A stretch of 64,000 nucleotides of DNA, the filler included, from a bacterium (GTDB taxonomy: Bacteria; UBA9089; CG2-30-40-21; SBAY01): the NCBI GenBank assembly GCA_040757115.1. It is 8 parts of 8 records of this genome, joined end to end, with 100 filler letters (N's around TTAATTAATTAA, not from the genome) between each part and the next. Parts side by side here need not be neighbours in the genome. Positions count along the whole stretch, not along the records: positions 25,982 to 34,377 come from JBFLYA010000162.1; 7 more parts are not named here. One strand, given 5' to 3'. The stretch's first letter is position 1. Every line of letters begins with the position of its first letter. The translations under genes and the position numbers were made by a program. The notes under the pieces are model-generated. The model ran no database searches. It had not been told where the DNA came from and saw nothing but the letters and a program-made list of their open reading frames with translations. Of this stretch, positions 21,289 to 37,297 are shown one piece after another.

Positions 21289-21909
21289 GTGAAGCGGTTA
21301 TTTGATATAGTTTTTTCGTTAATTGGTTTAATTTTCCTTTTTCCGTGCTTTGGAATAATATCCTTTTTAATAAAAAAGGAAGATAGAGGTCCTGTATTTT
21401 ATCGGGGACTGAGGGTTGGGATATGTGGAATACCTTTCAGAATTTTTAAGTTCAGAACAATGGTAATTAATGCAGATAAAATTGGAGGTCTTTCAACCGC
21501 AGATGATGACCCAAGGATTACAAAAATTGGCAAAAGACTCAGGAAATATAAACTTGATGAGTTACCACAATTAATAAATGTGCTAAAAGGTGATATAAGT
21601 TTTGTGGGACCAAGGCCAGAAGTTCAACATTATGTTAATATGTTCACCGAGGAAGAAAAGGCTATTCTAAGTATCCGTCCAGGGATCACAGATTGGGCTT
21701 GTCTTTGGAATTCAGATGAAGGGGCAATTCTCTCAGGAAGCCCTGACCCTGAAAAAACTTATATGGAAAAGATTCGTCCAACAAAGCTCAAACTTCAATT
21801 AAAATATGTGAAAGAACAATCCTTGTGGACAGATTTAAAAATTATATATCTAACCATTATGACTATTCTAACAAGGAAGCAGGTGTGGAATTATGAGGAA
21901 GAAATATAA
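21289..21909 (+). CDS. Bacterial sugar transferase (priming phosphoglycosyltransferase)
   Basis: KRLFDI, FKFRTM, DPRITKIGKRLRKYKLDELPQLINVLKGD.SFVGPRP. Confidence 0.92.
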   Translation: MKRLFDIVFSLIGLIFLFPCFGIISFLIKKEDRGPVFYRGLRVGICGIPFRIFKFRTMVINADKIGGLSTADDDPRITKIGKRLRKYKLDELPQLINVLKGDISFVGPRPEVQHYVNMFTEEEKAILSIRPGITDWACLWNSDEGAILSGSPDPEKTYMEKIRPTKLKLQLKYVKEQSLWTDLKIIYLTIMTILTRKQVWNYEEEI

Positions 21910-22879
21910 TAAGAACTTTTTGGTAGGATTATATCGGACGATGATGAGGATACGGATATGTGAGGAGAGTTTAGTAGAACCTATTCTGAGGGGTGAGGTT
22001 AAATGCCCATGCCACCTTTATTCTGGGGAGGAAGCAATAGCCACAGGAGTTTGTGCGGCTTTAGATGAAAGTGATTATATCTTCGGAAGCCATCGTTCTC
22101 ATGGCCATTATCTGGCTAAGGGAGGTAGTATGCCAGAACTTATAGCTGAGATTTACGGTAAGGAAACAGGTTGTTCAAAGGGTAGAGGTGGGTCGATGCA
22201 TCTAATTGCTCCTGAAAAAGGTATGCTTGGGGCAGTGCCTATTGTAGGTGGGACTATCTCCATAGCTCTGGGTGCGGCATTGGCTTCAAAGATAAGGAAA
22301 CAAAAGCGGGTAACCGTAAGTTTCTTTGGTGATGGAACAACTGGAGAAGGTGTGCTCTATGAATCTCTTAATTTTGCCTCCCTTAAAAAACTGCCCATTA
22401 TTTTTGCCTGCGAAAACAACCTTTATTCAACCCATCTGCCAATTAGGGAATGCCGCTTACAAAATAATATTTTTAAAACGGGTGTGCCATTTGGTATTCC
22501 AGGGGACAGGGTGGATGGCAATAATGTTTTAAAGGTTTATGAATCAACTAAAGCGGCAGTTGAGATTTGCAAAAAAGGTAACGGCCCGGTATTCATTGAA
22601 TTTTTAACTTATAGATTACGAGGACATGTTGGGCCTGATGATAATATTCATGGGATGCGGACAGATATCAGACCAAAGGAAGAAATAGAAAGATGGCAAA
22701 AAAAGGACCCTATTAAAAGATATGAAAGATTTCTTTTTAAAAATAAGATTTTGGTAAAGCAAGAGGTTGAAATGATTAGAAAAGAAGTAGAACAAGAGGT
22801 TAACAATAGCTTTGCCTTTGCTCTAAGCAGTTCATATCCAAAAGAAATGGAGTTAACAAAATATGTCTTTAAAGAATAG
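21893..22879 (+). CDS. TPP-dependent dehydrogenase E1 alpha-like subunit
   Basis: HRSHGH, KGRGGSMH, FFGDG...CENN TPP motif, TYRLRGH. Confidence 0.9.
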   Translation: MRKKYNKNFLVGLYRTMMRIRICEESLVEPILRGEVKCPCHLYSGEEAIATGVCAALDESDYIFGSHRSHGHYLAKGGSMPELIAEIYGKETGCSKGRGGSMHLIAPEKGMLGAVPIVGGTISIALGAALASKIRKQKRVTVSFFGDGTTGEGVLYESLNFASLKKLPIIFACENNLYSTHLPIRECRLQNNIFKTGVPFGIPGDRVDGNNVLKVYESTKAAVEICKKGNGPVFIEFLTYRLRGHVGPDDNIHGMRTDIRPKEEIERWQKKDPIKRYERFLFKNKILVKQEVEMIRKEVEQEVNNSFAFALSSSYPKEMELTKYVFKE

Positions 22880-23861
22880 AAAATTGCAATACAGCTTAGC
22901 CATAAATGAGGCAATCCATCAGATGATGGAGATTGATGAATCTGTTTTTCTTATAGGCCAGGGGGTGAAAAGTCCATGGTATGTCGGAAATACCGCCAGA
23001 GGGCTTTTGGAGAGATTTGGAGATGAGCGGGTTATTGATACCCCGGTTTCTGAAAATGCCATAACAGGTGCCGCTGTTGGTGCCGCTATTGCCGGAATGA
23101 GACCAATAGTTGTTCATCCAAGAATGGATTTTATGATGTATGCTATGGACCCCATCATTAATGAATCAGCAAATTGGCATTATATGTTTGGTGGAAATTC
23201 AACAGTGCCTGTGGTGATATGGAGTATTATCAACCGGGGTGGAGAGCAGGCCGCACAACATTCCCAGTCATTACATACCCTTTGTGCTCATATCCCGGGG
23301 TTAAAGGTTGTTATGCCTGCAACACCTTATGATGTCAAGGGACTTATGATCGCCGCCATAAAAGATGATAATCCAGTTATCTATATAGATGATAGATGGC
23401 TATATAATTTAGAAGGTGATGTTCCTGAAGAAATCTATTCAGTACCTATTGGAAAGGGTATCATCTGCAAAAAGGGTAAGGATATTACTTTAGTATCTGT
23501 ATCCTACATGGCAATTGAAGCCATAAAGGCGGCTGAATATCTTAAAAAAGAAGGAATTGATGTAGAAGTTATTGACCTTCGGTCTGTTAAACCTATTGAT
23601 AAAGAACTTTTATTTGAATCTGTAAAAAAAACAGGTAGACTTATTATTGCTGATTGTGGTTGGAAGACATGTGGATTTGCGGCTGAGATATCGGCGATGG
23701 TGTGTGAAAATATCTTTGAGTATCTTAAGTCACCGATAGCCCGAATTACCTTACCTGATACTCCAGCTCCAGCAAGTTTTGCCTTAGAAAAGGTATATTA
23801 TCCAAAGAGTGATAATATTATCGCCAAAATACAGGAGGTTCTCAAATGGGAAACCAAATAA
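22863..23861 (+). CDS. TPP-dependent dehydrogenase E1 beta-like subunit
   Basis: RVIDTPVSENAITG, AAQHSQ, EVIDLRSVKP. Confidence 0.9.
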   Translation: MSLKNRKLQYSLAINEAIHQMMEIDESVFLIGQGVKSPWYVGNTARGLLERFGDERVIDTPVSENAITGAAVGAAIAGMRPIVVHPRMDFMMYAMDPIINESANWHYMFGGNSTVPVVIWSIINRGGEQAAQHSQSLHTLCAHIPGLKVVMPATPYDVKGLMIAAIKDDNPVIYIDDRWLYNLEGDVPEEIYSVPIGKGIICKKGKDITLVSVSYMAIEAIKAAEYLKKEGIDVEVIDLRSVKPIDKELLFESVKKTGRLIIADCGWKTCGFAAEISAMVCENIFEYLKSPIARITLPDTPAPASFALEKVYYPKSDNIIAKIQEVLKWETK

Positions 23862-24955
23862 GATTCGTCAATTACCCCAGACAATATCAACAACTGAAGT
23901 CAGAGTTTGACAGCGTCTTTGAAAGGATAATGTCAAATGGTGATTTTATTCTACGGCAGGATTTAGAGGAATTTGAACATAATATTGCCCAATATGTTGG
24001 GACTAAACATGCTATTGGTGTCAATACAGGAACTGATGCCTTGTATCTTTCTGCACATGCCTTAGATTTTGGTGCAGGAGATGAAATCATTACTGTCGCT
24101 CATACATTTGTAGCTACTATTGGTGCTATTGTTCAATGTGGTGCCACACCTATACTTGTAGATATTAAAGATGATTTTAATATAGATGTTGACCAGATTG
24201 AACCCGCTATTACCCCTAAGACAAAGGGGATAATTCCAGTTCACCTTAATGGACATTCATGCAATATGGATAGGATTATGCAATTAGCACAAAAATATAA
24301 TCTTATGATTATTGAGGATGCCGCCCAGGCATTGGGTGCAAAATTCAAAGGCAAACGATGTGGCTCTTTTGGTCATACCAGCATATTTAGCTTTTATCCA
24401 GCCAAAATGTTAGGCACAGCAGGTGATGGAGGAATAATATGCACGGATGACGATAGATTGGCAAGAAAACTTAGGGCATTTCGAGATAACGGAAGGGTTG
24501 ATACGGTTGAAGTGATAGAATGTTTTGGATGGTGCAGCCGTCTTGATAACCTACATGCCGCTTTACTTAATATGAAATTCAAATATTTTGATAAATGGGT
24601 AAATCGCCGTAGAGAGATTGCCAGATTATATGATGAAGGGTTGTCAAACATTCCAGAAGTAATTACTCATCCTCGTCCAAATGATGACTACTTTGATGTA
24701 TATCAAAATTATGTCATTCGAACTAAAAGACGCAATGAATTAGCTCAATATTTGCGTAAATGTGGGATAGAAATATTAATTTCCTGGCCTACACCTCTAC
24801 ATAAACAGAAGGCTTTAGGACTTAGTGATTTCAGTTTACCTGTGACTGAACAAATATCAACTGAAGTTATTTCTCTACCAATGTATCCCGAGTTGACTGA
24901 TGATGAAGTACAAATAGTTATAGAGACTATCTATGATTTTTTTAAGAAGGAGTGA
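23846..24955 (+). CDS. DegT/DnrJ/EryC1/StrS sugar aminotransferase
   Basis: GTDAL, IEDAAQA, FSFYPAKMLGTAGDGG, SLPMYP. Confidence 0.92.
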   Translation: MGNQIRFVNYPRQYQQLKSEFDSVFERIMSNGDFILRQDLEEFEHNIAQYVGTKHAIGVNTGTDALYLSAHALDFGAGDEIITVAHTFVATIGAIVQCGATPILVDIKDDFNIDVDQIEPAITPKTKGIIPVHLNGHSCNMDRIMQLAQKYNLMIIEDAAQALGAKFKGKRCGSFGHTSIFSFYPAKMLGTAGDGGIICTDDDRLARKLRAFRDNGRVDTVEVIECFGWCSRLDNLHAALLNMKFKYFDKWVNRRREIARLYDEGLSNIPEVITHPRPNDDYFDVYQNYVIRTKRRNELAQYLRKCGIEILISWPTPLHKQKALGLSDFSLPVTEQISTEVISLPMYPELTDDEVQIVIETIYDFFKKE

Positions 24956-25733
24956 TGATAGAAATATGTCTGATTTTTCAACAGTGACAGAAATAACCGG
25001 CTATAATGTTACACAGGAACAAATAGAAAGGATGTATACTCGCTACCACTTTGCAGGTTTGTTTTGTGAAGGGAAGAATGTCCTGGAAGTCGCCTGCGGT
25101 TCTGGACAGGGGTTAGGTTATTTAACTCATAAGGCAAAAAAAGTCGTTGGGGTAGATATTGATAAAAAACTATTAGAAACTATCCAGAGACATTATAAAG
25201 ACAGGATACAACTCTTGCGAGCAAATGCACAACAATTGCCTTTTAAGGATAAAAGTTTTGATGTGGTCATCCTCTATGAGGCTATTTATTATCTATCTTG
25301 CCCGGAAAGATTTATAGAAGAATCAGCTCGCATACTTACAGATAAAGGCATTCTTCTTATTTGCACAGTCAACAAAGAATGGCATGATTTCAACCCATCT
25401 CCTTATAGTACTAAATATTTCTCTGTTAGAGAGTTATATTCTCTTTTGAAACAAAGATTTATCAATGTAGAAATTTATGGGGCATCGCCAATATCTGATG
25501 CGGTAAAGGATAAGATTATTTCCATAATAAAAAGATTTGCCGTTAAATTTCACCTGATACCAGAGACAATGAAAGGTAAGGAGTTTTTTAAAAGGATTTT
25601 CTGTGGGAAATTAGTTCCTCTGCCTCCTGAAATAAAGGATGGCATAGCAGAATACATCCCACCTGTGCCAATATCTTATGATTTACCAATTTATCAATAT
25701 AAAGTTTTATTTGCGGTAGGGAAATTAAGTTGA
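24933..25733 (+). CDS. Class I SAM-dependent methyltransferase (start may be ATG 24966)
   Basis: VLEVACGSGQG, LPFKDKSFDVV. Confidence 0.85.
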   Translation: MIFLRRSDDRNMSDFSTVTEITGYNVTQEQIERMYTRYHFAGLFCEGKNVLEVACGSGQGLGYLTHKAKKVVGVDIDKKLLETIQRHYKDRIQLLRANAQQLPFKDKSFDVVILYEAIYYLSCPERFIEESARILTDKGILLICTVNKEWHDFNPSPYSTKYFSVRELYSLLKQRFINVEIYGASPISDAVKDKIISIIKRFAVKFHLIPETMKGKEFFKRIFCGKLVPLPPEIKDGIAEYIPPVPISYDLPIYQYKVLFAVGKLS

Positions 25734-25881: not shown

Positions 25882-25981
25882 NNNNNNNNNNNNNNNNNNN
25901 NNNNNNNNNNNNNNNNNNNNNNNNNTTAATTAATTAANNNNNNNNNNNNNNNNNNNNNNNNNNNNNNNNNNNNNNNNNNNN

Positions 25982-26147
25982 TTACCCAATAGAATACTGC
26001 ACAAGAAATAAGGAAGGACATAAAAATAGCCCCAATGGAGACATAAGAACTTAAATCCTTATTCTTCCGTGTCCAAAATACGATTATCGGCACGGCTAAT
26101 AATGGTAAAGTTGGCACCCACCAGGTATAAGAAAGCATAATATTCAC
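25982..26147 (-). CDS. nuoL: NADH-quinone oxidoreductase subunit L, 5' fragment
   Basis: WWVPTLPLLA...SSYVSIGAIFMSFLIS N-terminus, downstream of nuoK; cut by contig end. Confidence 0.6.
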
Positions 26148-26584
26148 TCCTTTTGTTTATTTTCTTCTCTTTTCAATATAGAAGTTAATAATCTCTCAAT
26201 CAAAGGGCAATTAGTTTTATACATATTTATTACCTGCCATTTAAGATTGAGATAACGGTGAACTAACCGATTTCTGGCAATAGCTAATTGAGCCATATTT
26301 TGTTGTTCTTCATCTGTCAAACCAAATAAGTTAGCACACTTTTGCATTACCTCAGCATAATTTTCTACGGCAATACCTTCTTGTGTCAGGAGACTTCCAC
26401 TTATTTCAATAAGTGCAGTAAGAATATTTTCAACCGTCCTTTCCATAATCTTCTGAAGTTCTCTATCTTTCTCATATTCCTCCCATGTCTTATCTGCATA
26501 TTTTGTATCAAATTCTTTCATCTCATCAGAGATAAATTGGAGGGATTCGATAATTCTTCCTTTTGCATACTCAAACTTAGCCAT
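26144..26584 (-). CDS. HEPN/DUF86 RNase toxin (HepT-like)
   Basis: RNRLVH = RxxxxH motif; paired with upstream MNT. Confidence 0.85.
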   Translation of the reverse strand: MAKFEYAKGRIIESLQFISDEMKEFDTKYADKTWEEYEKDRELQKIMERTVENILTALIEISGSLLTQEGIAVENYAEVMQKCANLFGLTDEEQQNMAQLAIARNRLVHRYLNLKWQVINMYKTNCPLIERLLTSILKREENKQKE

Positions 26585-27029
26585 ACTTTAGTGCCTCCAA
26601 ATTTTTCCGCGTCATTTCTATCTGCCATTTTATCCCAAATATACTAAAATCTTCCATCTGAAATATAGCTTCGTTCTTTAATTTAACATATTCTTGAAAA
26701 TCGTTAATGTATATTGGGGTACTTAGAATAATGGCATTATAATAGAGCATAGGTTTTCTAAAATCCCTATAAATTGGAAGTATATTTACCTCTTTATTAA
26801 TCTTTGAAGAGAGGTGATATGAAATATCCATAATAATATTGAATATTTCATCATCTGATAGTGACTCTGGTAATAACACAGCTAAATCTACATCTGAATC
26901 TTGTCTGGGATAACCAGTTGCCCATGAACCGTATAAAAAGACCATCTCACTTTTATAATCCGCTGCCTTTTCTTTAAAAAATGTTTTTAATGTTGAAATA
27001 AAGGTATCTTTATCTTGTTGAGTAATCAT
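26577..27029 (-). CDS. Minimal nucleotidyltransferase antitoxin (MntA-like)
   Basis: FLYGSWATG....SDVDLAV. Confidence 0.85.
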   Translation of the reverse strand: MITQQDKDTFISTLKTFFKEKAADYKSEMVFLYGSWATGYPRQDSDVDLAVLLPESLSDDEIFNIIMDISYHLSSKINKEVNILPIYRDFRKPMLYYNAIILSTPIYINDFQEYVKLKNEAIFQMEDFSIFGIKWQIEMTRKNLEALKYG

Positions 27030-27064
27030 TTAAGACCTCTTTCTAACAAACACAAAAGGTTTGT

Positions 27065-27490
27065 TTAATAAAGATCTGTAATCCACTTTCCCTCATGTTC
27101 GGGATTAGGAATTATTCTCTGTGATTTTGTATCAACAACAAAATCCATATCTTCTAATACCAGGTACCCAATTAGAGGCGGTGTAGATGCATCATTTTCC
27201 ATCACCTGCATTTCAATGTCTCTATCCTGAATAATGATAATTGCTCCCCTAAAGATACGGCGATTTACCCGTCCATTGGCAGTTGATATTTCTCGTGTAT
27301 GGGAATATAATAATCCTAATCTTTCAATTATATCTGGCGGCAGACATAGATATGCGGCACCAGTATCCACTATTCCCTCAATTTCAACACTCCTTATTTC
27401 ATTTTCTCTAATCATCCCTTTAGTCTGCAATACCACATCTGCAAAATTTTTAACTACAACCTTTTCAACAGTTCTTCCCATTTTACCCAC
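27065..27490 (-). CDS. Clan AA (retropepsin-like) aspartic protease, AF_0612 type
   Basis: IVDTGA catalytic motif, LIGYLVLEDMDFVVD. Confidence 0.85.
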   Translation of the reverse strand: MGKMGRTVEKVVVKNFADVVLQTKGMIRENEIRSVEIEGIVDTGAAYLCLPPDIIERLGLLYSHTREISTANGRVNRRIFRGAIIIIQDRDIEMQVMENDASTPPLIGYLVLEDMDFVVDTKSQRIIPNPEHEGKWITDLY

Positions 27491-27499
27491 CTCTTCTTT

Positions 27500-27805
27500 T
27501 CACCACTTCATCAAATTTATCTTCTCCATATTGACTGTTTTTATATGGCGATAGATAGCGATAATGATAGCCAAACCAACGGCGGCTTCTGCGGCGGCTA
27601 TGGTTATGGTAAATATAGTAAATATCTGACCGGTTAGTTCATTTGGGGTAACATATTTTGAGAAGGCAACTAAATTGATATTGACCGCATTTAACATTAT
27701 CTCAATGCACAAAAGTATGCCAATGGCATTTCTACGAGTTAAAGCACCATACACTCCAATGGCAAAAAGTATAGCCGATAGAATAAGATAATGCGATAAA
27801 GTCAT
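27500..27805 (-). CDS. nuoK: NADH-quinone oxidoreductase subunit K
   Basis: [29 protein letters not shown]. Confidence 0.95.
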
Positions 27806-27879
27806 TGTCTTTTATCCTTCCTTTTTAAATTTATGATTTTAGATTGATGATTACTAACTTCAATCCTCATCATCAATTG

Positions 27880-28410
27880 TTAATTTGCTAATTCAGTAAG
27901 CTGTTTTATGTTAGTTTTTATTTTTTCATAAATCTCGCACAGTTTATTAGATATTTCAAAGAGTTTATTTATGCCATCTACAATATCTTTTTCTTCTTCG
28001 CTGTATTCATGGGTAAGGATATTTCTCAATTTTCTAAGTATAATCCATTCCTGTGCACTCTCAATTATCTTAAGTTTTTCTGCTCTGTTTAATACATCAA
28101 TAAAAGGGCTGTCTTCTATATCTTCGCCAAGATTCACCAGTAAAATCTTTAATAATCTACCTGCGGTATCCTGAAGTTTGCCAAAGCGATATGACATCTG
28201 GTCTATATATGAGATTTCCTGCTCTGTAAGTTTCTCATATTTTTCTATACTTAAAGGGACTATCTGTTGAAGGACATCTATTCCCGAAATAAGTCTTTTC
28301 ATATGAAGGTTACAGATAGATATGTAAAACTTCAAATTCTCCTGACTAAAATTATATTCTAACCCCTGTTGATTTTGCATATTTATAAATTGGTTCTTTT
28401 CGTGTTTCAT
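27880..28410 (-). CDS. HEPN-type (nucleotidyltransferase substrate-binding) protein; start uncertain
   Basis: YRFGKLQD, FIDVLNRAEKL, LRNILTHEY (RxxxxH). Confidence 0.8.
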   Translation of the reverse strand: MKHEKNQFINMQNQQGLEYNFSQENLKFYISICNLHMKRLISGIDVLQQIVPLSIEKYEKLTEQEISYIDQMSYRFGKLQDTAGRLLKILLVNLGEDIEDSPFIDVLNRAEKLKIIESAQEWIILRKLRNILTHEYSEEEKDIVDGINKLFEISNKLCEIYEKIKTNIKQLTELAN

Positions 28411-28651
28411 TTCTTTTTTTAACCACCAAATCTATTTTTTGGTCTCCTAATGCGATTTCAAGGTTTGCAAGGAATCTTGCCTTTGCTTCAATAATCTCCG
28501 GTGCGATTGAGGTTTCAATATAGATATCAATATCTCCACCCCTTTTTGTATTGTCAATTCTGGAGCCAAAGATAGCTACCTCGCAATCCTTGCCAAAATA
28601 TTCTATGGCAAGTTTCTTGATTAGTTTTAATATCTCTTCTTTAATTCGCAA
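28352..28651 (-). CDS. Minimal nucleotidyltransferase
   Basis: IFGSRID..KRGGDIDI, QKIDLV. Confidence 0.88.
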   Translation of the reverse strand: MRIKEEILKLIKKLAIEYFGKDCEVAIFGSRIDNTKRGGDIDIYIETSIAPEIIEAKARFLANLEIALGDQKIDLVVKKRNETRKEPIYKYAKSTGVRI

Positions 28652-28760
28652 TTTCTATGACCTTTTTAACTCTATTGCACTTGAATAGAGCGCCCTCTGG
28701 TTCATCGTTCATCGTAGTTTATAGAGTTTCTAACTCATTAATTTGCTAATCTCTAATCCG

Positions 28761-29264
28761 CTAATTCTCTTCTTTTTTCGCAATCACAATTGCACCAATC
28801 AGACAGGCTAATAATACCAATGAGATTAACTCAAAAGGAAAAACATAGGTAGTTAAAAGCAAATTACCAATTTTAGCGGTAGTATTAACCACTTCTGAAG
28901 TGGGAGTAACATTCCAGGTTGTCTTCGTCAGCACCGTGATTAAAAGGAATAACAGAAGTCCGGCTAAAATAGCCGAAGTGCTCTTTTGTTCATTGGTTTG
29001 TTTTATACCTTTGTCTGAAATTCTATAAGTCAACATAATTAAGAATAGAAATAAGACAATAATTGCACCAACATAGATTAATACCTGCACCAGAGCAATA
29101 AATTCTGCCCATAGGGTAATGTATAATCCTGCCAGTGTCAATAGCAAAAGTGCTAAAGAAACGACACAATGCACCAGACTTCTCAGACTAACAACTAAAA
29201 TAGCACTTATAACGGCAATTCCTGCCAGGATATAAAATGTTATCATACTACCAACGCCTTCCAT
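28761..29264 (-). CDS. nuoJ: NADH-quinone oxidoreductase subunit J
   Basis: AEFIALVQVLIYVGAIIVLFLF, YVFPFELISLVLL. Confidence 0.95.
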   Translation of the reverse strand: MEGVGSMITFYILAGIAVISAILVVSLRSLVHCVVSLALLLLTLAGLYITLWAEFIALVQVLIYVGAIIVLFLFLIMLTYRISDKGIKQTNEQKSTSAILAGLLLFLLITVLTKTTWNVTPTSEVVNTTAKIGNLLLTTYVFPFELISLVLLACLIGAIVIAKKEEN

Positions 29265-29276
29265 TAAATTTCTCCT

Positions 29277-29753
29277 TTAACAATCGTAATTTTTAAGAAA
29301 TTCATCCACCAGATAAATAGACAGTTCCTTTCGTGAAACCATTTTTTCTTTTAATCTATTATCTGTAGTCAGAATACAACTTTTTGTTGATATAGCAGCT
29401 TTAACTAAATACAAATCATCTTCTGGTGTTTCTTGTATTAGTTCTGAAGATAATGGAATTAAATTATTTTCTTCAAGTATCTCAAATTTTTTACTATTAG
29501 TCCGAAATTGATAAATAAAATTTTTTACCAAACTTCTAATTTCAGGTCTCCAATTACCTGATTCTTTTGCTATCCCCCATATTTTTTTCTCTAACTTTCC
29601 TCCCTTTATTATAACGAATTTATCGCATTTTTCAAAAACCTTCTGTAAAAATTCAAACACTATCTTTTGTTTTTCAGGTGTTGACTCTTTAGGTGATATA
29701 AAATGAATTATCCACTCATCAATAACGATATTCAATCTGTCTCTATGTTTCAC
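29277..29753 (-). CDS. PIN-like domain protein
   Basis: IVIDEWI..., DDLYLVKAA...ILTTDNRL acidic motifs. Confidence 0.6.
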   Translation of the reverse strand: MKHRDRLNIVIDEWIIHFISPKESTPEKQKIVFEFLQKVFEKCDKFVIIKGGKLEKKIWGIAKESGNWRPEIRSLVKNFIYQFRTNSKKFEILEENNLIPLSSELIQETPEDDLYLVKAAISTKSCILTTDNRLKEKMVSRKELSIYLVDEFLKNYDC

Positions 29754-30932
29754 CTATTTTACTCCTAAAATATCCTTAAGGTCTTCTAACTCTCCTTCCA
29801 TAAAAGAAGTCAATCCACCTTCAATCTGGCCATTATCATTTATCCCTTGATATTCAAATTTACTTTCGCGGTTATCTTTCGTGCATAAATAGCAAGATAA
29901 ATTATTCGGTTCAAGTTCTTTTTTAGCGACGGCGCTAAGTAGAGCTAACACAAAATGTTCACTATGAGTAGAGATAATAATTGTTTTCTTTAAGTCCTTA
30001 GTCATTCGGATTAAGGCATAAGCAAGATTCCTTAATGCCTTTGGATGTAAATGAATTTCTGGTTCTTCAATACATACCACCGCCGTATCTCTATAAAGAC
30101 ATTTTGCCAGTAAATAAACCACTTGATTGATGCCAAATCCATCGTTAACTAATTCTGTGGTTAATCCGGTTGTTTTATCAAGGGTATTAAGCCAGAAGAG
30201 ATTAGTTCCTGGTGTCATTTTGACCCGCAAGTCCTTTTGAAGGATTTGTTCAAGATAATGACTGACTTCACCTTCCAGATACGGTTCATTGGCTAAAAGA
30301 GTGGCTACTTCATCTTCTGTAAATACTGGAGGAGCAAGTGAAACTATTCCATAATGTGGTTTTGAAAATCCTCGTTTTAGATGCACAAAATCAGTTTTCC
30401 TGATAATCTCTATATGAGCATTAAGTAGAGTAGCTAATTCCTGAGAAGAACAGGAGGTTATATGTTGTGTTGGTATACTTTTTACTTGAGCAAGAATTCC
30501 ATTCCAGGTTATTGAGAATCCTTCTATATCTACCGTTTCTTGTTGATTTGTAGGATAAGGGAATGTTATTTCAAGGTCAAGTGTAATATTCCATGGTAAA
30601 ATTATGAGTCCGAACCTTCCATTTTTTTTACTCAGGCTAATTCTATAAAAGACCTGTATTGAATTATATTCGCAATTAATTCCTAATTTAATTTGTTCCT
30701 CAACACTATGATTAAACACTATTTGTTCAAACCCACCAAAATTGCTAAATCCAAGATTAAAAAAGCTATCAGTAGTTTGATTAGGATTAAGAACAATATT
30801 TTTAAGAATTGCCAGGGAATGCATAATCGTCGATTTTCCAGAGCCATTTGGACCATAAAGTAGTGTTATCGGAGCAATTTGAATTATCTGTTTCTTAATA
30901 GACCTTAAATTTTCAATTTCAATATTTAACAT
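29754..30932 (-). CDS. AAA_21/AbiEii-like ABC-type ATPase (DUF3696-type C-terminus)
   Basis: GPNGSGKST, GFGINQV, IEEPEIHLHP, ISTHSEH. Confidence 0.85.
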   Translation of the reverse strand: MLNIEIENLRSIKKQIIQIAPITLLYGPNGSGKSTIMHSLAILKNIVLNPNQTTDSFFNLGFSNFGGFEQIVFNHSVEEQIKLGINCEYNSIQVFYRISLSKKNGRFGLIILPWNITLDLEITFPYPTNQQETVDIEGFSITWNGILAQVKSIPTQHITSCSSQELATLLNAHIEIIRKTDFVHLKRGFSKPHYGIVSLAPPVFTEDEVATLLANEPYLEGEVSHYLEQILQKDLRVKMTPGTNLFWLNTLDKTTGLTTELVNDGFGINQVVYLLAKCLYRDTAVVCIEEPEIHLHPKALRNLAYALIRMTKDLKKTIIISTHSEHFVLALLSAVAKKELEPNNLSCYLCTKDNRESKFEYQGINDNGQIEGGLTSFMEGELEDLKDILGVK

Positions 30933-30933
30933 T

Positions 30934-32001
30934 TTAAATACCTCGTGAACTAAATACCATCAGTAACCCCGTAATAATTATATTAATAAATCCCAGTGGA
31001 ACTAAGAATTTCCAGCCAAAGGTCATTAATTGGTCGACGCGTAGTCTGGGATAAGTCCATCTAATCCACATCATTACAAAGACGATGGCATAGGTTTTAG
31101 CTAAAAACCAGATAATTGGTGGTAATGTAACCGGGATTTCTGGTATTGCTTGCCAACCACCCAAAAATAAACTTGTGCAAATTGCACAGACAACAAACAT
31201 ATTTGCGTATTCAGCTAAGAAAAACATAGCAAATTTTATACCGCCGTATTCGGTATGGAAACCGGCGACAAGTTCTGATTCTGCCTCCGGGATGTCAAAT
31301 GGTGCTCGATTGCATTCAGCCGTAGCCGCAATTAAATAAAGTAAAAAGCCAAGTGGTTGATAGCAGATATACCAGATATTTCTCTGGGCATCAACTATAT
31401 CGCCCATTTTTAAAGAACCAGCTATCATCACTATCCCTAAGAGAGATAACACAATTGCGACTTCGTAACTTACCACCTGAGCCGCACTTCGCATCCCACC
31501 AAGTAATGAATATTTATTGCCCGATGACCAACCAGCCATAATTATTCCAATACTTCCAATACTACTCACGGCTAAAAGATATAATAGCCCAAGATTCAAA
31601 TCTCTAACGATAATTCCAGGTGACCAGGGAAGCACCACATAACACATTATCGCCGGGAAAAAGACGATTATCGGTGACAGGAAAAACATTGTTTTATCCG
31701 CCGCCTTTGGCATTAAGTTTTCTTTCAAAACAAGTTTAACGGCATCGGCGGCTGTTTGTAAAATGCCGTGAAATCCAACCCGCATTGGTCCCAGTCTATC
31801 CTGGATATGAGCGGCTATTTTGCGTTCAGCTAAAACTAACATCATCGTATTAACTGCCACAAATCCAGCAAGTATTCCTGCCACGATAACCATAATTCCC
31901 ACAGTTAATACAATAAATGGGATATTATAATCCCAGCATAACTTTTGTAAGAAAATATAGATTCTATCAATTAATTCTTGTGTCTTAAATAATAACTCCA
32001 T
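30934..32001 (-). CDS. nuoH: NADH-quinone oxidoreductase subunit H
   Basis: ERKIAAHIQDRLGP, NRAPFDIPEAESELVAGFHTEY, PRLRVDQLM. Confidence 0.97.
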   Translation of the reverse strand: MELLFKTQELIDRIYIFLQKLCWDYNIPFIVLTVGIMVIVAGILAGFVAVNTMMLVLAERKIAAHIQDRLGPMRVGFHGILQTAADAVKLVLKENLMPKAADKTMFFLSPIIVFFPAIMCYVVLPWSPGIIVRDLNLGLLYLLAVSSIGSIGIIMAGWSSGNKYSLLGGMRSAAQVVSYEVAIVLSLLGIVMIAGSLKMGDIVDAQRNIWYICYQPLGFLLYLIAATAECNRAPFDIPEAESELVAGFHTEYGGIKFAMFFLAEYANMFVVCAICTSLFLGGWQAIPEIPVTLPPIIWFLAKTYAIVFVMMWIRWTYPRLRVDQLMTFGWKFLVPLGFINIIITGLLMVFSSRGI

Positions 32002-32042
32002 CTTATCTACCCCCGTTCATAACCGTTCTCCTGAAAATAGTT

Positions 32043-32110
32043 AATTAGAGATTAGAGAATTAGTGAATTAGAACCTGCACTCTTGCTAATCTCCAATCTC
32101 TAATCTCTAT
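32043..32110. repeat. Inverted short-period repeat (GATTAGA / TCTAATC type)
   Basis: AATTAGAGATTAGAGAATTAGTGAATTAG ... CTAATCTCCAATCTCTAATCTCT; related tracts at 28730-28765, 34695-34720, 50510-50615. Confidence 0.6.
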
Positions 32111-32119
32111 GCTCAATTT

Positions 32120-32626
32120 TCATCCCCTTTTGTGCCCACTCACGGTGGGCATGGCCGTTTCTTCTGTTAACAACATTTTTCTGCCTATCGTTTCACTAAA
32201 CGACTTTGTTTTTTCTATAATCTCTATCAACTTGTGGCTATATTCAATAACAGCCTCAAATATTTCAGTAATATCATCTACCCTATATTCATGAGAGATT
32301 TCATTCCTTAAATCCCTTATCAATTTTAATTCTTCAGCAGAGGATATTTCCAGTTTTTCAAACAAATTTACTCTATCTATAAAAGTATTTGCTTCTTCTC
32401 TTAAAATAAGGATTATCCCCTTCATTATCTTTTGAGTGTAAATATCACTTGTTCTGGCAAATCTCGAAGTAAGGCTTTCAAATCTATCAAGCTCTTCCAG
32501 AGAGTAATCTGTCTTTATCCCAATTTTTTCACACTCCTGCAATGAATGTTGCAACATTTTAACTGCCATATCCAGCCTATTAAGGTCTTTTTTTAACTCT
32601 TCTCTGATTAATGCTTCGGTTCTCAC
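32120..32626 (-). CDS. HEPN-type protein
   Basis: FESLTSRFARTSD, LRNEISHEY (RxxxxH). Confidence 0.82.
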   Translation of the reverse strand: MRTEALIREELKKDLNRLDMAVKMLQHSLQECEKIGIKTDYSLEELDRFESLTSRFARTSDIYTQKIMKGIILILREEANTFIDRVNLFEKLEISSAEELKLIRDLRNEISHEYRVDDITEIFEAVIEYSHKLIEIIEKTKSFSETIGRKMLLTEETAMPTVSGHKRG

Positions 32627-32910
32627 AGCCTTATCCCTTCCTGCAAAACCAGTTCTTTAAACGCATCGTTCTCATTAAACATAGAAGATACTATGTCAAT
32701 TTTTTGCTCGCCAAATTTCTCAAAATATCGCCATTTTATTTTGGCTTTTTCCTTCCATCTTATTTTCCTGTCAGATAGAATCATAATATCTATATCTCCA
32801 CCCTTTTTTTTGTCATCTACCCGTGAACCAAAAAGATAAACTACTGCATCTGGAACAAGAAGCAAAATCTCCCTTTTAAGAAACTCTAGTTGTTCTGCTG
32901 AAATTCTCAT
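32623..32910 (-). CDS. Minimal nucleotidyltransferase
   Basis: YLFGSRVDDKKKGGDIDI, FGEQKIDI. Confidence 0.88.
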   Translation of the reverse strand: MRISAEQLEFLKREILLLVPDAVVYLFGSRVDDKKKGGDIDIMILSDRKIRWKEKAKIKWRYFEKFGEQKIDIVSSMFNENDAFKELVLQEGIRL

Positions 32911-32932
32911 TTTAATTTTCTCTGTCTATAGT

Positions 32933-33373
32933 TTATTTATACCTTGTCACCTCTGGTGGTTTATAGAGAAGCTCTTTTGTGTAAATCATTCCCGCTCGAT
33001 TATAACACGCTAATTCATACTCACCAGTCATAGTCAAGGCATTTTTCGGACAGGCTTCGACACATAATCCACAAAACAGGCATCTGGCAATATTTATTTC
33101 AAAGGATATAACCTCTTTGTTATAATCTGTTCCCTCACCGGTAACAATTTTTATTGCCTGAGAAGGACACATCTGGGCACAAAGGCAACAGCCTACACAT
33201 CGTTCCTCGCCTTTCTCATCTATAGTTAATCTTTCCAATCCACGGTATCTATCGGCTACAATCCAGCGTTGTCGTGGATATTGCAAGGTAACCGACTTAA
33301 CAAATAAATGTCCAAAAGTGACGCATAATCCTTTTATAAGTTCTTTAATTGAGATAATTATATTCTGTCGCAT
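32933..33373 (-). CDS. nuoI: NADH-quinone oxidoreductase subunit I
   Basis: VTLQYP, RYRG, CVGCCLCAQMCP and CLFCGLCVEACP. Confidence 0.93.
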   Translation of the reverse strand: MRQNIIISIKELIKGLCVTFGHLFVKSVTLQYPRQRWIVADRYRGLERLTIDEKGEERCVGCCLCAQMCPSQAIKIVTGEGTDYNKEVISFEINIARCLFCGLCVEACPKNALTMTGEYELACYNRAGMIYTKELLYKPPEVTRYK

Positions 33374-33410
33374 CCTTTAATTTACCACCCTTATATTTAG
33401 TAATTGTAGA

Positions 33411-33744
33411 GTTCTGCAAAACTAAGAAACTGTAGTTTTTAAGCGGGTATTTAAAACCTCTATTTTTATCAATTTCCTCCAAAGAGCAAAATGCACAACT
33501 CGTTTATAGTTTATAGTGTATAGTGTATAGTTTATAGTCCTTCAACTATCAACTATCTACTATCAATTATCAACTATCTTTGCCAAAGTTCACTAAAATC
33601 ATCTCTTTCCTTTCAACGTTAACATTCTCGAAGTCCTTTTTGAAATTTGATTTGTAATTTTGCATTTTGATATTTATATTTGATATTTAATATTTAATAT
33701 TTGATATTTATTTGTTGTCTCCCCCAAATCCTATTTTGCAGAAC
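33411..33744. mobile_element. Composite MITE (TIR GTTCTGCAAAA) carrying a heptamer hairpin and a four-helix-bundle gene remnant
   Basis: GTTCTGCAAAA ... TTTTGCAGAAC; interior shared with 59468-59693. Confidence 0.7.
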
Positions 33745-33792
33745 CATATTAGTAATTGCTTAAATGGTAACTAAATTAGCAATTACTAATTT

Positions 33793-34224
33793 TTATCCCT
33801 TTTGACTTTCAGCCAACACCCTGACAATGTCAGATATAGAAAGTAATCCTGCGGGAAACTTTTTTGTCTCCCCTTCCTTTCCATAGACACCTTTTACCTC
33901 TTCCTGGATGAGTAACCGATGTATTTTTTTCTGACGCATTATCTGACAGGCATTCTCCAGAGGTTCCTCTTTATCAATAGCAATTACCCCTTTTGTCATA
34001 ATATCTTTAACTTTAACTTTAATTAAATCCTCACCAAATACCTTGACAACATCTGTTTCGGATAAAACGCCGATTAATCCTTCTTGAGAAGATGTAACCG
34101 CCAGTCCGCTGACCTTATTATCCGCCATTACTCTAACTGCTTGAGATACTGAGGCATTTTCCGGGATAATCAATACCCCTCTGACCATTACATCCTTTAC
34201 CTTTATAGATTTTAAGTCTTTCAT
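33793..34224 (-). CDS. CBS-pair protein
   Basis: KVKDVM...IGVLSETD and KVKDIM...GLLSISD. Confidence 0.9.
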   Translation of the reverse strand: MKDLKSIKVKDVMVRGVLIIPENASVSQAVRVMADNKVSGLAVTSSQEGLIGVLSETDVVKVFGEDLIKVKVKDIMTKGVIAIDKEEPLENACQIMRQKKIHRLLIQEEVKGVYGKEGETKKFPAGLLSISDIVRVLAESQKG

Positions 34225-34377: not shown

Positions 34378-34477
34378 NNNNNNNNNNNNNNNNNNNNNNN
34401 NNNNNNNNNNNNNNNNNNNNNTTAATTAATTAANNNNNNNNNNNNNNNNNNNNNNNNNNNNNNNNNNNNNNNNNNNN

Positions 34478-34692: not shown

Positions 34693-34895
34693 GAAAATTA
34701 GAGATTAGCAAATTAGGAGAAGATGAGAGGATAAGAAGTTAAGAGGATAAGAGATACAGATGGCGGATTGAAAAAATCGAAAATTAAACTGGTGTGTGGG
34801 TATCTATGTGTCTGGTAGTCTATGTAACGGAACTTCCCCTCTATTTAAAGGCAAAAATGTGGCTAAAAACTATTTTTCAGGAGGTAAAAAAAACG

Positions 34896-36725
34896 ATGTC
34901 AGTGAAAAAAGTTTTTCCCAGCCCTTTTGAAATTGAAACACCAGAGGGTGCAAACGGATGGAAGGAAATGTATCCTTACTATCTCTTGTTTAGTGAAGAG
35001 CGTAAAGAACTTGAAGAAGAGAGATTTTGGTTTTGCGATACGATGCATTGGACAACCCCACTCTATCCCTTTGACATTTTTACCGCAGAAAGTGCTATAT
35101 CTGCTCTGGGTCGTTATAACACCCGTGTTTGGCTTATCCCACCCGCACTGGGCATAGATATAAGGTTACTTAATGGCTTCATATATCTAAGTCCTTTAAC
35201 GGTTGATGACCCCGAGGAGATAACAGAAAGGCTAAAGGATTTTAGTCAGCGGGCAGGGTTTTATTATCAAAATTGGGATAGCCTTTATGCTAAATGGAAG
35301 GAAAAGGTAACCAGAGAAATAGAAGGATTAAAATCAATCGCCATTCCTGATTTACCCGAAAAAGAAGACCTCCAGAAGATAACCGATGCGGTTGGCATTT
35401 CCACCGGATTTTCCCTTCTTTCTGCCTACAATCAACTCATAGAAAGTATGACTAAAATCTGGGAATACCACTTTGAGTTCTTAAATTTAGGGTATGCCGC
35501 TTTTCTTGATTTTTCTTGCTTTATGAAAGGTATTTTCCCTGATATTTCAGACCAGACGATTACTAAAATGGTGGCGGGTATAGATGTTATTTTATTTCGA
35601 CCAGATAATGAATTGAGAAGATTATCTAAATTAGCAGTAGAACTCAATCTATCCGAGATATTTCTTGAAGGACAAATACCTGAGGCAATCATCGAAAGAT
35701 TGCAAAGGACTGACTCAGGTAAACAATGGTTAAACAGTTTGGAAGAGATTAAAGACCCCTGGTTCTATTTCAACTCTGGCACAGGGTTCTATCATACACC
35801 CCGAAGTTGGATAGATGATTTATCTATTCCCTTTTCAGCCATTGCTGGATATATCAAAAAATTACAGGCTGGAGAAAATATAGAGAGGAAAACAGAAAAA
35901 ATAGTAGAAGAAGGAGAGAAACTAAAAGAGGGGTATTTTTCGTTATTAAGAAGTGATGAGGATAAAAAGGTTTTCCTGGAAAAATTCTCTCTGGCTAAAA
36001 CCGTATTTAGTTATGTTGAGGAGCATAATTTTTATGTTGAGCACTGGCACCATACTATCTTCTGGAATAAGATGCGTGAGGTAGGGAAGATTTTAGCAAA
36101 AAGTGGCTTCTTTGCGCAAGAAGAGGATATATTTTATTTAAACAGATATGAAATCTCACAAGCCCTCTATGACCTATATTCATCCTGGGGGATTGGTTCT
36201 CTTCCCAAGGGACCTCAATATTGGCCAAAAATAATCTTAAAGAGGAAAGAAATAATCAAGGCACTTGAGAAATGGCAGCCTGTTCCTGCCTTAGGACCAC
36301 CACCGGAGAAGATTACTGAACCATTTACCATTATGCTCTGGGGAATTGTTTCAGAAAAGATAGACGCCTGGCTTGAGGCTATGAGTGGGGAGCAAAAAGA
36401 GGGAGCATTGCTGAGAGGGCACCCTGCTTCACCGGGGGTAGTTGAAGGAATTGCCAGAATAGTGCTTTCAACCGATGACCTGCCTGATGTTCAGGAAGAC
36501 GAGATAATGGTCTGCCCAATTACTACACCATCCTGGACGCCTGTGTTTGCCAGGATAAAAGGTGTAGTGGCTAATGTTGGTGGGATGATGAGCCATGCCG
36601 CCATTGTCTGCAGGGAATACGGCTTGCCTGCGGTGGTAGGCACAGGCTTTGGAACTCGATTGATTAAAACAGGCCAATATTTAAGAGTTGATGGAACTAA
36701 AGGGATAGTGGAGATTGTAAAATAA
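34896..36725 (+). CDS. Phenylphosphate synthase alpha-like PEP-utilising (phospho-His) subunit
   Basis: GWKEMYPY, YHFEFLNLGYAA, HNFYVEHW, GGMMSHAAIVCREYG; GGAGG RBS before ATG 34896. Confidence 0.85.
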   Translation: MSVKKVFPSPFEIETPEGANGWKEMYPYYLLFSEERKELEEERFWFCDTMHWTTPLYPFDIFTAESAISALGRYNTRVWLIPPALGIDIRLLNGFIYLSPLTVDDPEEITERLKDFSQRAGFYYQNWDSLYAKWKEKVTREIEGLKSIAIPDLPEKEDLQKITDAVGISTGFSLLSAYNQLIESMTKIWEYHFEFLNLGYAAFLDFSCFMKGIFPDISDQTITKMVAGIDVILFRPDNELRRLSKLAVELNLSEIFLEGQIPEAIIERLQRTDSGKQWLNSLEEIKDPWFYFNSGTGFYHTPRSWIDDLSIPFSAIAGYIKKLQAGENIERKTEKIVEEGEKLKEGYFSLLRSDEDKKVFLEKFSLAKTVFSYVEEHNFYVEHWHHTIFWNKMREVGKILAKSGFFAQEEDIFYLNRYEISQALYDLYSSWGIGSLPKGPQYWPKIILKRKEIIKALEKWQPVPALGPPPEKITEPFTIMLWGIVSEKIDAWLEAMSGEQKEGALLRGHPASPGVVEGIARIVLSTDDLPDVQEDEIMVCPITTPSWTPVFARIKGVVANVGGMMSHAAIVCREYGLPAVVGTGFGTRLIKTGQYLRVDGTKGIVEIVK

Positions 36726-36838
36726 AGAAATACATAACCACAAATTTGTGGTTGATATATTTTATTTGCTTTAATTCTGCATTATTTGCTAAAACAGTTA
36801 AGAGAAAAACTACCAGATTTTAAAAGGAGGGAAAAACT

Positions 36839-37264
36839 ATGCCAGTAATTGCTGTTCCCAGAGTTTTGAGGGAAAAATTAGGGGAAGATGGGGTGGATTC
36901 CTTAGTTGAACTCTTCAACAAATCAGAAGAAAGAATAAAGGAAGATGTTATTACCCTATCAGCAGAGAAATTCGCAAGAAGGCTTTCTGAGGAAATCAGT
37001 GGAGTAAGGTCAGATATTGCAATCATGGAAGGGAAACTTGAGGCAAGAATTTCTGGAGTAAGGGCTGAAATGAAAGAGGAAGTTACCTCTCTTAGGGCTG
37101 AAATGAAAGAGGAAGTTACCTCTCTTAGGGCTGAAATGAAAGAGGAAACTTCAAAAATCAGAGTTGAAATGGCACAGTTCAAATCAGAAATTATCAAATG
37201 GATGTTTCTATTCTGGATAGGGCAGATTGCTTGTATGGCTGGAATTGTGAAGTGGTTGAGGTAA
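36839..37264 (+). CDS. DUF1640/CCDC90-like coiled-coil protein with 33-nt tandem repeats
   Basis: (RAEMKEEVTSL)x~2.7, KSEIIKWMFLFWIGQ tail. Confidence 0.75.
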   Translation: MPVIAVPRVLREKLGEDGVDSLVELFNKSEERIKEDVITLSAEKFARRLSEEISGVRSDIAIMEGKLEARISGVRAEMKEEVTSLRAEMKEEVTSLRAEMKEETSKIRVEMAQFKSEIIKWMFLFWIGQIACMAGIVKWLR

Positions 37265-37297
37265 AGATAAGAGACAAAAATTTCAGGAAAGAACTCT

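Follow-up and report, generated by a model that had tools for sequence, protein, structure and literature searches.

We analysed a stretch of 64,000 nt (the window) from the metagenome-assembled genome (MAG) GCA_040757115.1, and found in it a gene string for respiratory complex I (nuo) in which all four junctions between five nuo genes (4/4) were occupied by toxin–antitoxin (TA) or defence-like genes. The string was carried by a single contig (25982–34377, 8,396 bp, GC 0.343), which started within nuoL and at its other end reached to just upstream of a CBS-domain gene. Open reading frame (ORF) calling combined with Pfam and NCBIfam scans gave the minus-strand order nuoI, MNT1–HEPN1, nuoH, an ATPase with a 158-aa protein, nuoJ, MNT2–HEPN2, nuoK, an aspartic protease with MNT3–HepT3, and nuoL, with all genes co-oriented and intact, except that nuoL was cut by the contig end. 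The four inserts measured 931, 1,669, 955, and 1,352 nt, so that about two thirds of the 7.4-kb stretch was cargo. A preliminary description of this DNA had claimed this gene order, with a module in every nuo junction, as well as the co-orientation of all genes, and both claims were borne out, every gene lying on the minus strand.

Following the minus strand, the string began with nuoI (32933–33373, 146 aa). The predicted antitoxin of pair 1, MNT1 (32623–32910, 95 aa), followed 22 nt later and overlapped by 4 nt the predicted RNase toxin of this pair, HEPN1 (32120–32626, 168 aa), whose GTG start lay over the MNT1 stop codon. A 118-nt spacer (32002–32119) led to nuoH (30934–32001, 355 aa), and only 1 nt separated the nuoH stop from the ATG of an ABC/SMC-type ATPase gene of the AAA_15/AAA_21 kind (29754–30932, 392 aa). 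The gene of the 158-aa protein, which belongs to an unnamed family (29277–29753), abutted the ATPase gene (0 nt) if started from GTG 29753, which has AGGAG upstream, or followed it by 18 nt if started from TTG 29735; the later start is possible because homologues aligned only from residue 8. Next came nuoJ (28761–29264, 167 aa), 12 nt downstream, and, after 109 nt, the predicted antitoxin of pair 2, MNT2 (28352–28651, 99 aa, TTG start). Its predicted RNase toxin partner, HEPN2 (27880–28335, 151 aa from TTG 28335), was about 16 nt away when measured from the inferred TTG, and overlapped MNT2 if the longest ORF, from 28410, is taken. The gene nuoK (27500–27805, 101 aa) was preceded by a 74-nt spacer and followed, after 9 or 18 nt, by the gene of a retropepsin-like clan AA aspartic protease (27065–27490, 141 aa, likely start ATG 27481). 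The predicted antitoxin of pair 3, the MntA-like MNT3 (26577–27029, 150 aa), lay 35 nt further on and overlapped by 8 nt HepT3 (26144–26584, 146 aa), a predicted HepT-like HEPN RNase. Finally, HepT3 either overlapped nuoL (25982–26147, the first 52–55 codons before the contig boundary) by 4 nt, if nuoL starts with GTG, or stopped 5 nt short of it, if the start is an ATG with an upstream AAGGAG. This ATG, 9 nt downstream of the GTG, is the likelier start because tblastn alignments to other NuoL proteins began at residue 4. The tight coupling that had been proposed for the string therefore held in part: it was seen at nuoH/ATPase (1 nt), at ATPase/158-aa gene (abutting with the GTG start), and at HepT3/nuoL (overlap with the GTG start), but three spacers were 74–118 nt long.

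The nuo genes themselves were well recognised. NuoI, NuoH, NuoJ, and NuoK appeared full length, and NuoI (TIGR01971, 136.9 bits, cut-off 113.05), NuoH (NF004741, 369.7 bits, cut-off 305; Pfam NADHdh 1.5e-123), and NuoK (NF004322, 153.9 bits, cut-off 128) scored above the curated cut-offs. NuoJ matched the full Pfam Oxidored_q3 model (6.4e-38, 130.2 vs. 33.2), and NuoI kept both CxxCxxCxxxCP (4Fe-4S) motifs. The NuoL N-terminus matched, with up to 56% identity in tblastn, the ORF that directly follows nuoK in 45 of the comparison loci. The genes nuoA–D were found neither on the contig nor elsewhere in the window. The contig probably represents the distal part of a complex I gene string, intact, from an AT-rich uncultivated bacterium.

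As a comparison set we used the best 80 nuo loci obtained by a profile search of genome contigs with a NuoH alignment; they came from other phyla, with NuoH at most 58% identical. Among the loci listed, nuoH came first in all those that had both genes (75/75), whereas here nuoI precedes nuoH. Thus, the canonical contiguous H–I–J–K–L order was not seen in our string, in which I stood before H and every junction was occupied. Of 256 junctions examined in the comparison loci (H|I 75, I|J 68, J|K 68, K|L 45), 21 had gaps of more than 300 nt. The contents of these gaps were taken from the inspected ones, with four gaps of 323–368 nt left aside, and some turned out to be extended NuoI or NuoJ. Others contained additional genes: a TPR-histidine kinase at H|I of Cytophagia-type loci (found in scans of L058, L067, L072, and L074, with an ORF of like size in L071), a conserved membrane protein of 240 aa at K|L of the Zixibacteria-type loci L001 and L020 (with the same gap in L021), a GltD-like oxidoreductase at H|I of a Chloroflexota MAG (L060), and an unknown 153-aa ORF at I|J of L004. 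The nine insert proteins, when compared by tblastn with these 80 loci of other phyla, gave 0 matches among the loci listed.

Closer relatives of the nuo genes were present in the protein collection. NuoH had one relative of 95% identity (P0001, on a contig of 31,851 bp), twelve of 82–87%, and four of 71–73%, and the nearest source-named one, from Ca. Desantisbacteria, was 68% identical. The C-terminus of NuoH (30934–30960), ending in MVFSSRGI, was common only to the window and P0001, while the other relatives shown ended in MVIK(G). The derived tail that the two have in common may have been left by an older event at this end of nuoH.

The three pairs were of the MNT–HEPN type, as had been proposed, with the reservation that HEPN1 had no Pfam match of its own. 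Among the predicted antitoxins, MNT1 matched Pfam NTP_transf_2 (31.9 bits, cut-off 21) and Polbeta (40.2), and MNT3 exceeded the cut-offs of Polbeta (48 bits) and NTP_transf_2 (37.0 bits, cut-off 21), and reached 49.3 against the cut-off of 60 of MntA_antitoxin; MNT2 remained just under the cut-off with both NTP_transf_2 (20.0 bits, cut-off 21) and Polbeta (20.6). In an alignment of 33 HEPN1-type rows that included HEPN2 (A3), 18/33 matched HepT-like (PF01934) and 15/33 NTase_sub_bind, all below threshold; a HEPN1 profile found nothing meaningful in the PDB. The start of HEPN1 was supported by the N-termini of its homologues, and the TTG start of HEPN2 was inferred from an AGGAG and from the alignment with HEPN1. 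HEPN2 matched NTase_sub_bind (7.4e-05, 23.2 vs. the cut-off of 31.8) and the HI0074 family (1.7e-08), both below cut-off, and HepT3 matched Pfam HepT-like (48.7 bits, cut-off 23.5) and, below the cut-off of 60, HepT_toxin (53.1).

The motifs were more uniform. The RxxxxH previously reported for all three HEPNs was confirmed, and was in fact RX4HXY in each of them: RNEISHEY in HEPN1, RNILTHEY in HEPN2, and RNRLVHRY in HepT3. In the HEPN1 family R107, N108, and Y114 were invariant, and H112 was conserved in at least 90%. MNT1 and MNT2 contained GSX9DXD (GS-X9-DID), and MNT3 contained GSX10DXD (GS-X10-DVD), which was read by eye from the translation, the pattern script having matched a shorter GSX8DSD. 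In the available part of one report, an RX4HXY toxin and an upstream MNT with GSX10DXD define class I HEPN/MNT modules, and MntA neutralises the HepT RNase by AMP added to the tyrosine of RX4HXY, through polyadenylylation (PMC7641770). By analogy, and judging from motifs and gene order, tyrosine AMPylation by the MNT protein is the most likely mechanism for all three pairs. MNT1 and MNT2 were 40% identical and HEPN1 and HEPN2 31%, which rules out a recent tandem duplication of the pairs, and pair 3 had no significant blastp similarity to pairs 1 and 2 (best E 0.06–0.3). Pair 3 is a predicted plain HepT/MntA-type pair, and pairs 1 and 2 are putatively of a different, shorter kind, HI0073/HI0074-like. 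The protease that precedes pair 3 scored above the Pfam cut-off for gag-asp_proteas (36.3 bits, cut-off 28.2) and below that of TIGR03698 (7.3e-14), and had a DTGA motif; it is without an established link to MNT–HEPN modules, and may or may not belong to pair 3.

The ATPase in the nuoH–nuoJ junction matched Pfam AAA_15 (2.9e-23) and AAA_21 (2.2e-22), and had the Walker A sequence GPNGSGKS. In the PADLOC library, which carries no curated cut-off, its best match was NsnB of the Menshen system (3.9e-39), residues 3–389 aligning with positions 4–343 of the 345 of the model. The matches to AriA models were partial (5e-28, residues 238–328), as were those to HEC, Old, and GajA, and in the PDB it matched an OLD-family nuclease (9e-08). 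The 158-aa protein belonged to a family of proteins of about 150 aa (249 representatives at E ≤ 1e-3), in which E13, W14, D44, K57, K89, D113, Y115, T129, and D131 were conserved. The earlier designation of this gene as PIN-like was sustained only as a lead: PIN clusters were the nearest named ones in a language-model atlas (score 0.92–0.93, 137–149 shared features), but the protein had no match in Pfam, PADLOC, or the PDB (profile search). PIN_9 was matched weakly, by 3/70 members of the family (best E 0.016), and the conserved E13, D44, D113, and D131 would supply the four acidic residues by which PIN domains are judged. The 158-aa protein is thus a probable PIN-like partner of the ATPase, and we read the two genes as a putative minimal ATPase-plus-nuclease module. 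The identification of this module with Menshen was ruled out, because NsnA was absent from the contig and the partner lacked an effector domain, yet kept acidic residues.

The inserts differed from the nuo genes in the distribution of their relatives. The ATPase stood alone in its own 90% cluster, and its next relative was 68% identical and came from a 1,971-bp contig; none above 68% was present in the protein collection, whereas NuoH had a 95% relative. As far as the collection shows, the ATPase insert is therefore not shared with the genome of P0001, because an orthologue there would be expected well above 68%. The 60% relatives of the ATPase included one from a Bathyarchaeota MAG, and those of 49–51% came from MAGs named as Thermoplasmata, Thermodesulfobacteriota, and Armatimonadota. 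HEPN1 had, among the matches listed, at least 120 homologues of 65–90% identity, including some of 67–90% in MAGs source-named as Nitrospirae/Nitrospirota, Nitrospinae, Omnitrophica, and Ca. Magnetobacterium. None of these homologues (P0241–P0360, about 150 aa) had a precomputed Pfam domain. The HEPN1 family was far more conserved across such phyla than housekeeping proteins, and its 65–90% identity, compared with at most 58% for NuoH in the 80 loci, is the signature of a module moving between phyla. As an indirect fingerprint, none of the 17 NuoH relatives of at least 71% identity lay on a contig of the same size in bp as that of any listed ATPase or HEPN1 homologue. The GC content at third codon positions was 0.23 in the ATPase gene and 0.19 in the 158-aa gene, compared with 0.32–0.37 in the nuo genes; that of other genes of the bin was 0.22–0.37, a range that includes the value of the ATPase gene. 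The inserts look like independent horizontal acquisitions rather than duplications.

No vehicle for these acquisitions was recognised. Pfam and NCBIfam scans revealed no transposase or integrase family on the contig, and a repeat search of the contig found no repeats at the insert joins or bracketing the inserts, in agreement with the previous observation that no transposase or terminal inverted repeat bounds them. HEPN1 had no match in the plasmid collection, the 158-aa protein had none in the plasmid and phage collections, and the ATPase had only matches of 20–34% identity in the plasmid collection, so that no carrier element was found. An integron-like cassette array was ruled out, there being no integrase family and no recurring inverted repeat (attC-like) at the boundaries.

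Promoter-like and terminator-like matches were compared with those in shuffled sequence. The former were not above the shuffles (41 vs. 35.5 ± 6.1), and the latter were (12 vs. 4.0 ± 2.1). No terminator-like site was found at any insert end, and the six matches on the coding (minus) strand were all inside nuo coding sequence. Most cistrons had a Shine–Dalgarno-like sequence of their own in the 40 nt upstream of their starts, as judged by eye. The simplest reading would be that transcripts run on from an upstream promoter and that the cistrons start translation independently. The likely promoter region is the 419-nt spacer upstream of nuoI (33374–33792, minus strand), which contained two weak promoter-like matches at 33586–33545. 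The spacer separates nuoI from a co-oriented upstream neighbour that is outside the nuo string, a gene for a protein with a pair of CBS domains (33793–34224, minus strand, Pfam CBS 5.5e-24 in two stretches). Among the spacers of the string, the one between HEPN1 and nuoH folded into a hairpin with a minimum free energy of −31.6 kcal/mol (z −4.14, none of 200 shuffles as stable), built from opposed arrays of 7-nt repeats and followed by UUAACUAUUUUC. The other four spacers folded no better than most shuffles, of which 66, 11, 56, and 200 of 200 folded at least as well.

The 419-nt spacer also contained one copy of a dispersed repeat, about 100 nt upstream of nuoI, together with the tandem 7-nt repeats GTTTATA, TCAACTA, and TTTGATA. 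An exact 23-mer of the dispersed repeat occurred four times on four contigs (0 expected), at 8550–8572, 33473–33495, 43102–43124 (minus), and 59468–59490. The repeat is a modular element of about 100–300 nt, whose core contains variable 7-nt tandem arrays, and the copy upstream of nuoI was aligned with that at 59468. As three of the copies lay within about 250 nt of contig ends, the repeat probably breaks the assembly. Arrays of 7-nt units were seen throughout the window, several of them in intergenic spacers (ACAGAGG, GTTTATA, TCAACTA, TTTGATA, GCAGAGG, and TTGGTAA; for example at 2186–2239, 33502–33578, 33639–33709, 43727–43791, 45584–45666, and 59497–59573). We take them to resemble the heptamer repeats of some cyanobacteria. 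No Rfam family was found in the window at gathering scores.

The rest of the window, about 55 kb, was less rich in such modules. None of its 59 other ORFs matched MNT or HEPN families at E ≤ 1e-4, and tblastn of the nine insert proteins against the window hit the nuo contig only. A polysaccharide cluster of eight genes (17395–25733) was uninterrupted, as was a kinase/regulator pair. In the region 34794–38128, a co-oriented 141-aa gene (36839–37264) for an LA_3696-family/CCDC90-like coiled-coil protein, with a perfect 33-nt tandem repeat, stood between two genes, one for a PEP-utilising protein of the PRK08296 family and one for an ATP-binding PPDK_N protein; possibly a small gene has entered a junction here as well. 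At 47754–49024 (minus), three overlapping small genes (193, 66, and 173 aa) lay between two divergent radical-SAM genes. The 193-aa one had weak nucleotidyltransferase matches at relaxed thresholds (DUF2204 6.9e-4, DUF6036 2.6e-3), and the three genes may be another TA-like cassette. The presence of other selfish-looking genes indicates that the genome is permissive in general, yet the density in the nuo string stands out.

Several other features of the window were noted. Downstream of tuf (53286–55545) were genes for a DUF3782 and PDDEXK_10 protein with 42-nt tandem repeats, and for an Rpn-family (PDDEXK_2) recombination-promoting nuclease/putative transposase. A giant ORF at 11577–17256, of 1,911 aa as called with read-through into the spacer, ran off its contig end. 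The window itself is a chain of MAG contigs of falling length, as is usual for a concatenated MAG, and features are not readable across the N44-TTAATTAATTAA-N44 spacers that join them (8613–8712, 17257–17356, 25882–25981, 34378–34477, 42844–42943, 51288–51387, and 59694–59793), nor across a gap of 100 N at 6187–6286.

We consider it probable, at roughly 60%, that four separate horizontal acquisitions put selfish or defence modules into the four nuo intercistronic junctions. These would have been two HI0073/HI0074-like MNT–HEPN pairs, one MntA–HepT pair preceded by a retropepsin-like protease, and one NsnB/AriA-like ABC ATPase accompanied by a small PIN-like protein. The modules would be transcribed by read-through from the nuo promoter, and every cistron would be translated from a Shine–Dalgarno sequence of its own. 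Within the pairs, MNT would neutralise the HEPN RNase by AMPylating the tyrosine of RX4HXY, as in HepT/MntA, and the ATPase would hold or control the small nuclease, as in Septu, PARIS, and Menshen. Mobile selfish modules would land independently, and selection on complex I would spare only co-oriented, non-polar insertions between cistrons; only such terminator-free insertions would persist, because those of any other kind would have polar effects on complex I. Established modules would then be difficult to lose, since toxin addiction and the damage that imprecise deletions would do to nuo genes both work against loss. Their accumulation would be an accretion like that of defence islands, and the highly conserved genes on either side could provide the homology by which strains exchange cargo. 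As to the delivery route, such exchange by way of the nuo flanks is also the guess that we prefer. A related view, which we regard as rather unlikely, is that the nuo junctions are "cargo slots" of an operon-embedded defence island, each holding one unrelated module that lives off operon transcription. The modules would then be shielded from deletion by the essential-type genes on either side, and their swapping between strains, by homologous recombination through the highly conserved nuo genes, would account for the absence of mobility genes; this traffic would have left its marks in the position of nuoI before nuoH and in the derived tail of NuoH.

An artefact of assembly or binning, by which fragments of nuo were joined to unrelated DNA carrying TA genes, seems to us highly improbable. 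It draws on the shortness of the contig (8,396 bp) in a fragmented MAG, in which dispersed repeats break the assembly elsewhere. A chimera would, however, need eight joins, all of them at cistron boundaries and restoring the order H–J–K–L after each insert, and the joins were without repeats. Moreover, the spacers held the 7-nt repeat types of this genome, the repeat upstream of nuoI was present on three other contigs as well, and the GC content of the inserted genes (0.28–0.37) overlapped that of the genes on other contigs (0.30–0.44). Chimeric assembly is unlikely because of the cistron-boundary joins with the order restored, the lack of join repeats, and the shared 7-nt repeats; to the extent that sequence can show it, the feature is real. 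It could alternatively belong to a genome in which selfish modules are so abundant that four filled junctions in a row would be an extreme of chance, without any preference for nuo. The LA_3696-family gene at 34794–38128, the nuclease genes after tuf, and the 47754–49024 cassette fit this, as does the limited basis of 64 kb of the genome. The fact that 0/59 other ORFs matched MNT or HEPN and that tblastn of the insert proteins found nothing elsewhere in the window speaks against it, as do the uninterrupted polysaccharide cluster (8 genes) and kinase/regulator pair and the rough post hoc odds, of about 1e-5 to 1e-6, for four events on one given four-junction set out of about 57. We therefore regard such saturation as improbable.

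The preliminary description had suggested that the modules are targeted to the junctions. In an active form of targeting, an unrecognised mobility mechanism would insert modules specifically at stop/start junctions of transcribed operons. Four insertions lying exactly between cistrons and in the orientation of the operon, some 0–22 nt from their neighbours, would agree with active targeting, and so would the failure to find a transposase, an integrase, or terminal repeats. Selection, however, removes intragenic, antisense, and polar insertions, so that precise co-oriented survivors are expected without targeting; the four cargoes speak against a single dedicated machinery, being drawn from three or more unrelated families; the boundaries had no motif in common; and the 80 other nuo loci had, among those listed, no homologue of the nine insert proteins. 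The suggestion of targeting is thus unsupported, selection among independent landings fitting equally well or better, and we consider an active mechanism distinctly improbable. Even less credit can be given to a domestication of the modules in the service of complex I, in which HEPN/PIN RNases would, for example, process nuo mRNA or couple growth arrest to respiration. The genes were intact, with catalytic motifs kept and ribosome-binding sites of their own, one spacer had a strong hairpin, and the derived NuoH C-terminus common to the window and the 95% relative lay beside one insert. Against such a role, the ATPase had no relative above 68% although NuoH had one of 95%, HEPN1-type genes at 67–90% identity in MAGs named as many phyla are typical of mobile genes, the nuo loci of other phyla that were listed (80) had no such genes, and the literature, searched by titles and abstract openings, gives no link of these families to complex I. 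The proposed link of RNase toxins to respiration is likewise unsupported, as is the high expression that had been ascribed to the operon.

Several points weigh against independent, recent acquisitions read through from the nuo promoter. The "recent and variable" nature of the cargo was judged from protein-collection statistics, and an orthologue from the 95% relative could be concealed in the top HEPN1 cluster (P0241, 90%, 4 members). The derived NuoH tail could mean that something was already downstream of nuoH in the ancestor of the window and P0001. As for read-through, the −31.6 kcal/mol hairpin after one insert could insulate or terminate, and one of the long spacers contained a promoter-like match (27863–27836). 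As for identity, HEPN2, MNT2, and the HepT/MntA equivalogs scored under the curated cut-offs, and the PIN assignment of the 158-aa protein is a lead only. Additionally, the enrichment was judged from 64 kb of the genome, and both the assembly and the putative co-transcription are argued from sequence.

If confirmed, the string would show how much selfish load such an operon can carry with all its nuo cistrons intact. It would also mean that intercistronic junctions may be safe harbours for such modules, and that conserved core genes may be homology arms for the exchange of defence cargo without mobility genes. The analysis additionally yields a highly conserved HEPN family (HEPN1 type), present in MAGs to which the names of several phyla of groundwater and sediment are given, and a two-gene module of an ABC ATPase and a small, predicted PIN-like protein, similar to a minimal system of the Menshen type.

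Most descriptions of TA and defence modules place them in islands, prophages, or plasmids, and to our knowledge insertions of single modules into operons have received no more than a brief mention. One such case, given in the available text of its source, is an MNT–HEPN module inserted in the lysine operon of Thermus thermophilus HB8 and absent from HB27 (Makarova et al., PMC2701414). We found no published description of TA modules in nuo junctions in literature searched by titles and abstract openings. In P. aeruginosa, according to the part of the report available, defence hotspots are bounded by conserved core genes without mobile-element scars, and their exchange by homologous recombination through the conserved flanks was proposed (PMC10250203). 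Here too, unrelated modules were packed within a few kb between conserved genes, without mobile-element genes or scars; the cargo differs in being interleaved, with one module per junction of an essential-type operon, instead of forming one block. The nuo operons of other phyla likewise had co-oriented non-nuo genes between nuo cistrons, but these lineage-specific extras were single genes, mostly present in more than one related locus and not of TA or defence families, in which they differ from our string.

Among defence systems with ATPases, the closest to the nuoH–nuoJ insert was Menshen (NsnABC). In the accessible text of the study, NsnB is predicted to clamp the effector NsnC at its PIN-like N-terminal domain, much in the way that nucleases are bound by PtuA and AriA, and NsnC consists of an N-terminal inactive PIN-like domain and a C-terminal nuclease domain (PMC12065111). 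Our ATPase matched the NsnB model across its whole length, and its gene directly preceded that of a small protein with PIN-like leads. However, no NsnA (ParB/DUF262) family was found on the contig, where the ATPase gene was flanked by nuoH and the 158-aa gene, with nuoJ next, and the 158-aa partner was a single-domain protein without the C-terminal effector that, unlike the "inactive PIN" of NsnC, keeps conserved acidic residues. The likeness to PARIS (AriA/AriB) was smaller, the AriA match being only partial and the partner having no TOPRIM/DUF4435 AriB-like match; the HNH partner (PtuB) of Septu (PtuAB) was missing here, and the GajA model of Gabija was matched by the ATPase only in part.

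The pairs compare more closely with the HepT/MntA type VII TA modules (class I). As in these, each MNT gene stood directly upstream of its HEPN gene, overlapping it or close to it, and all three HEPNs had RX4HXY. GSX10DXD was held by MNT3, and the corresponding motif of MNT1 and MNT2 was one residue shorter. PF01934 and PF01909 were above the cut-off for pair 3, HEPN1 had no Pfam match, HEPN2 and MNT2 were below the cut-offs, and the NCBIfam equivalogs were below theirs even for pair 3 (53.1 and 49.3 vs. 60). Recent insertion into operons is a documented habit of the known modules, as far as the available text of the source goes (PMC2701414); our string differs in having three pairs inside one respiratory operon, one of them after a retropepsin-like protease. 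The modules are thus of known mobile kinds, and what is unusual is their dense interleaving, in four of four junctions and with nuoI before nuoH, so that the string combines the ideas of operon insertion and of the hotspot flanked by core genes in an unusual architecture.

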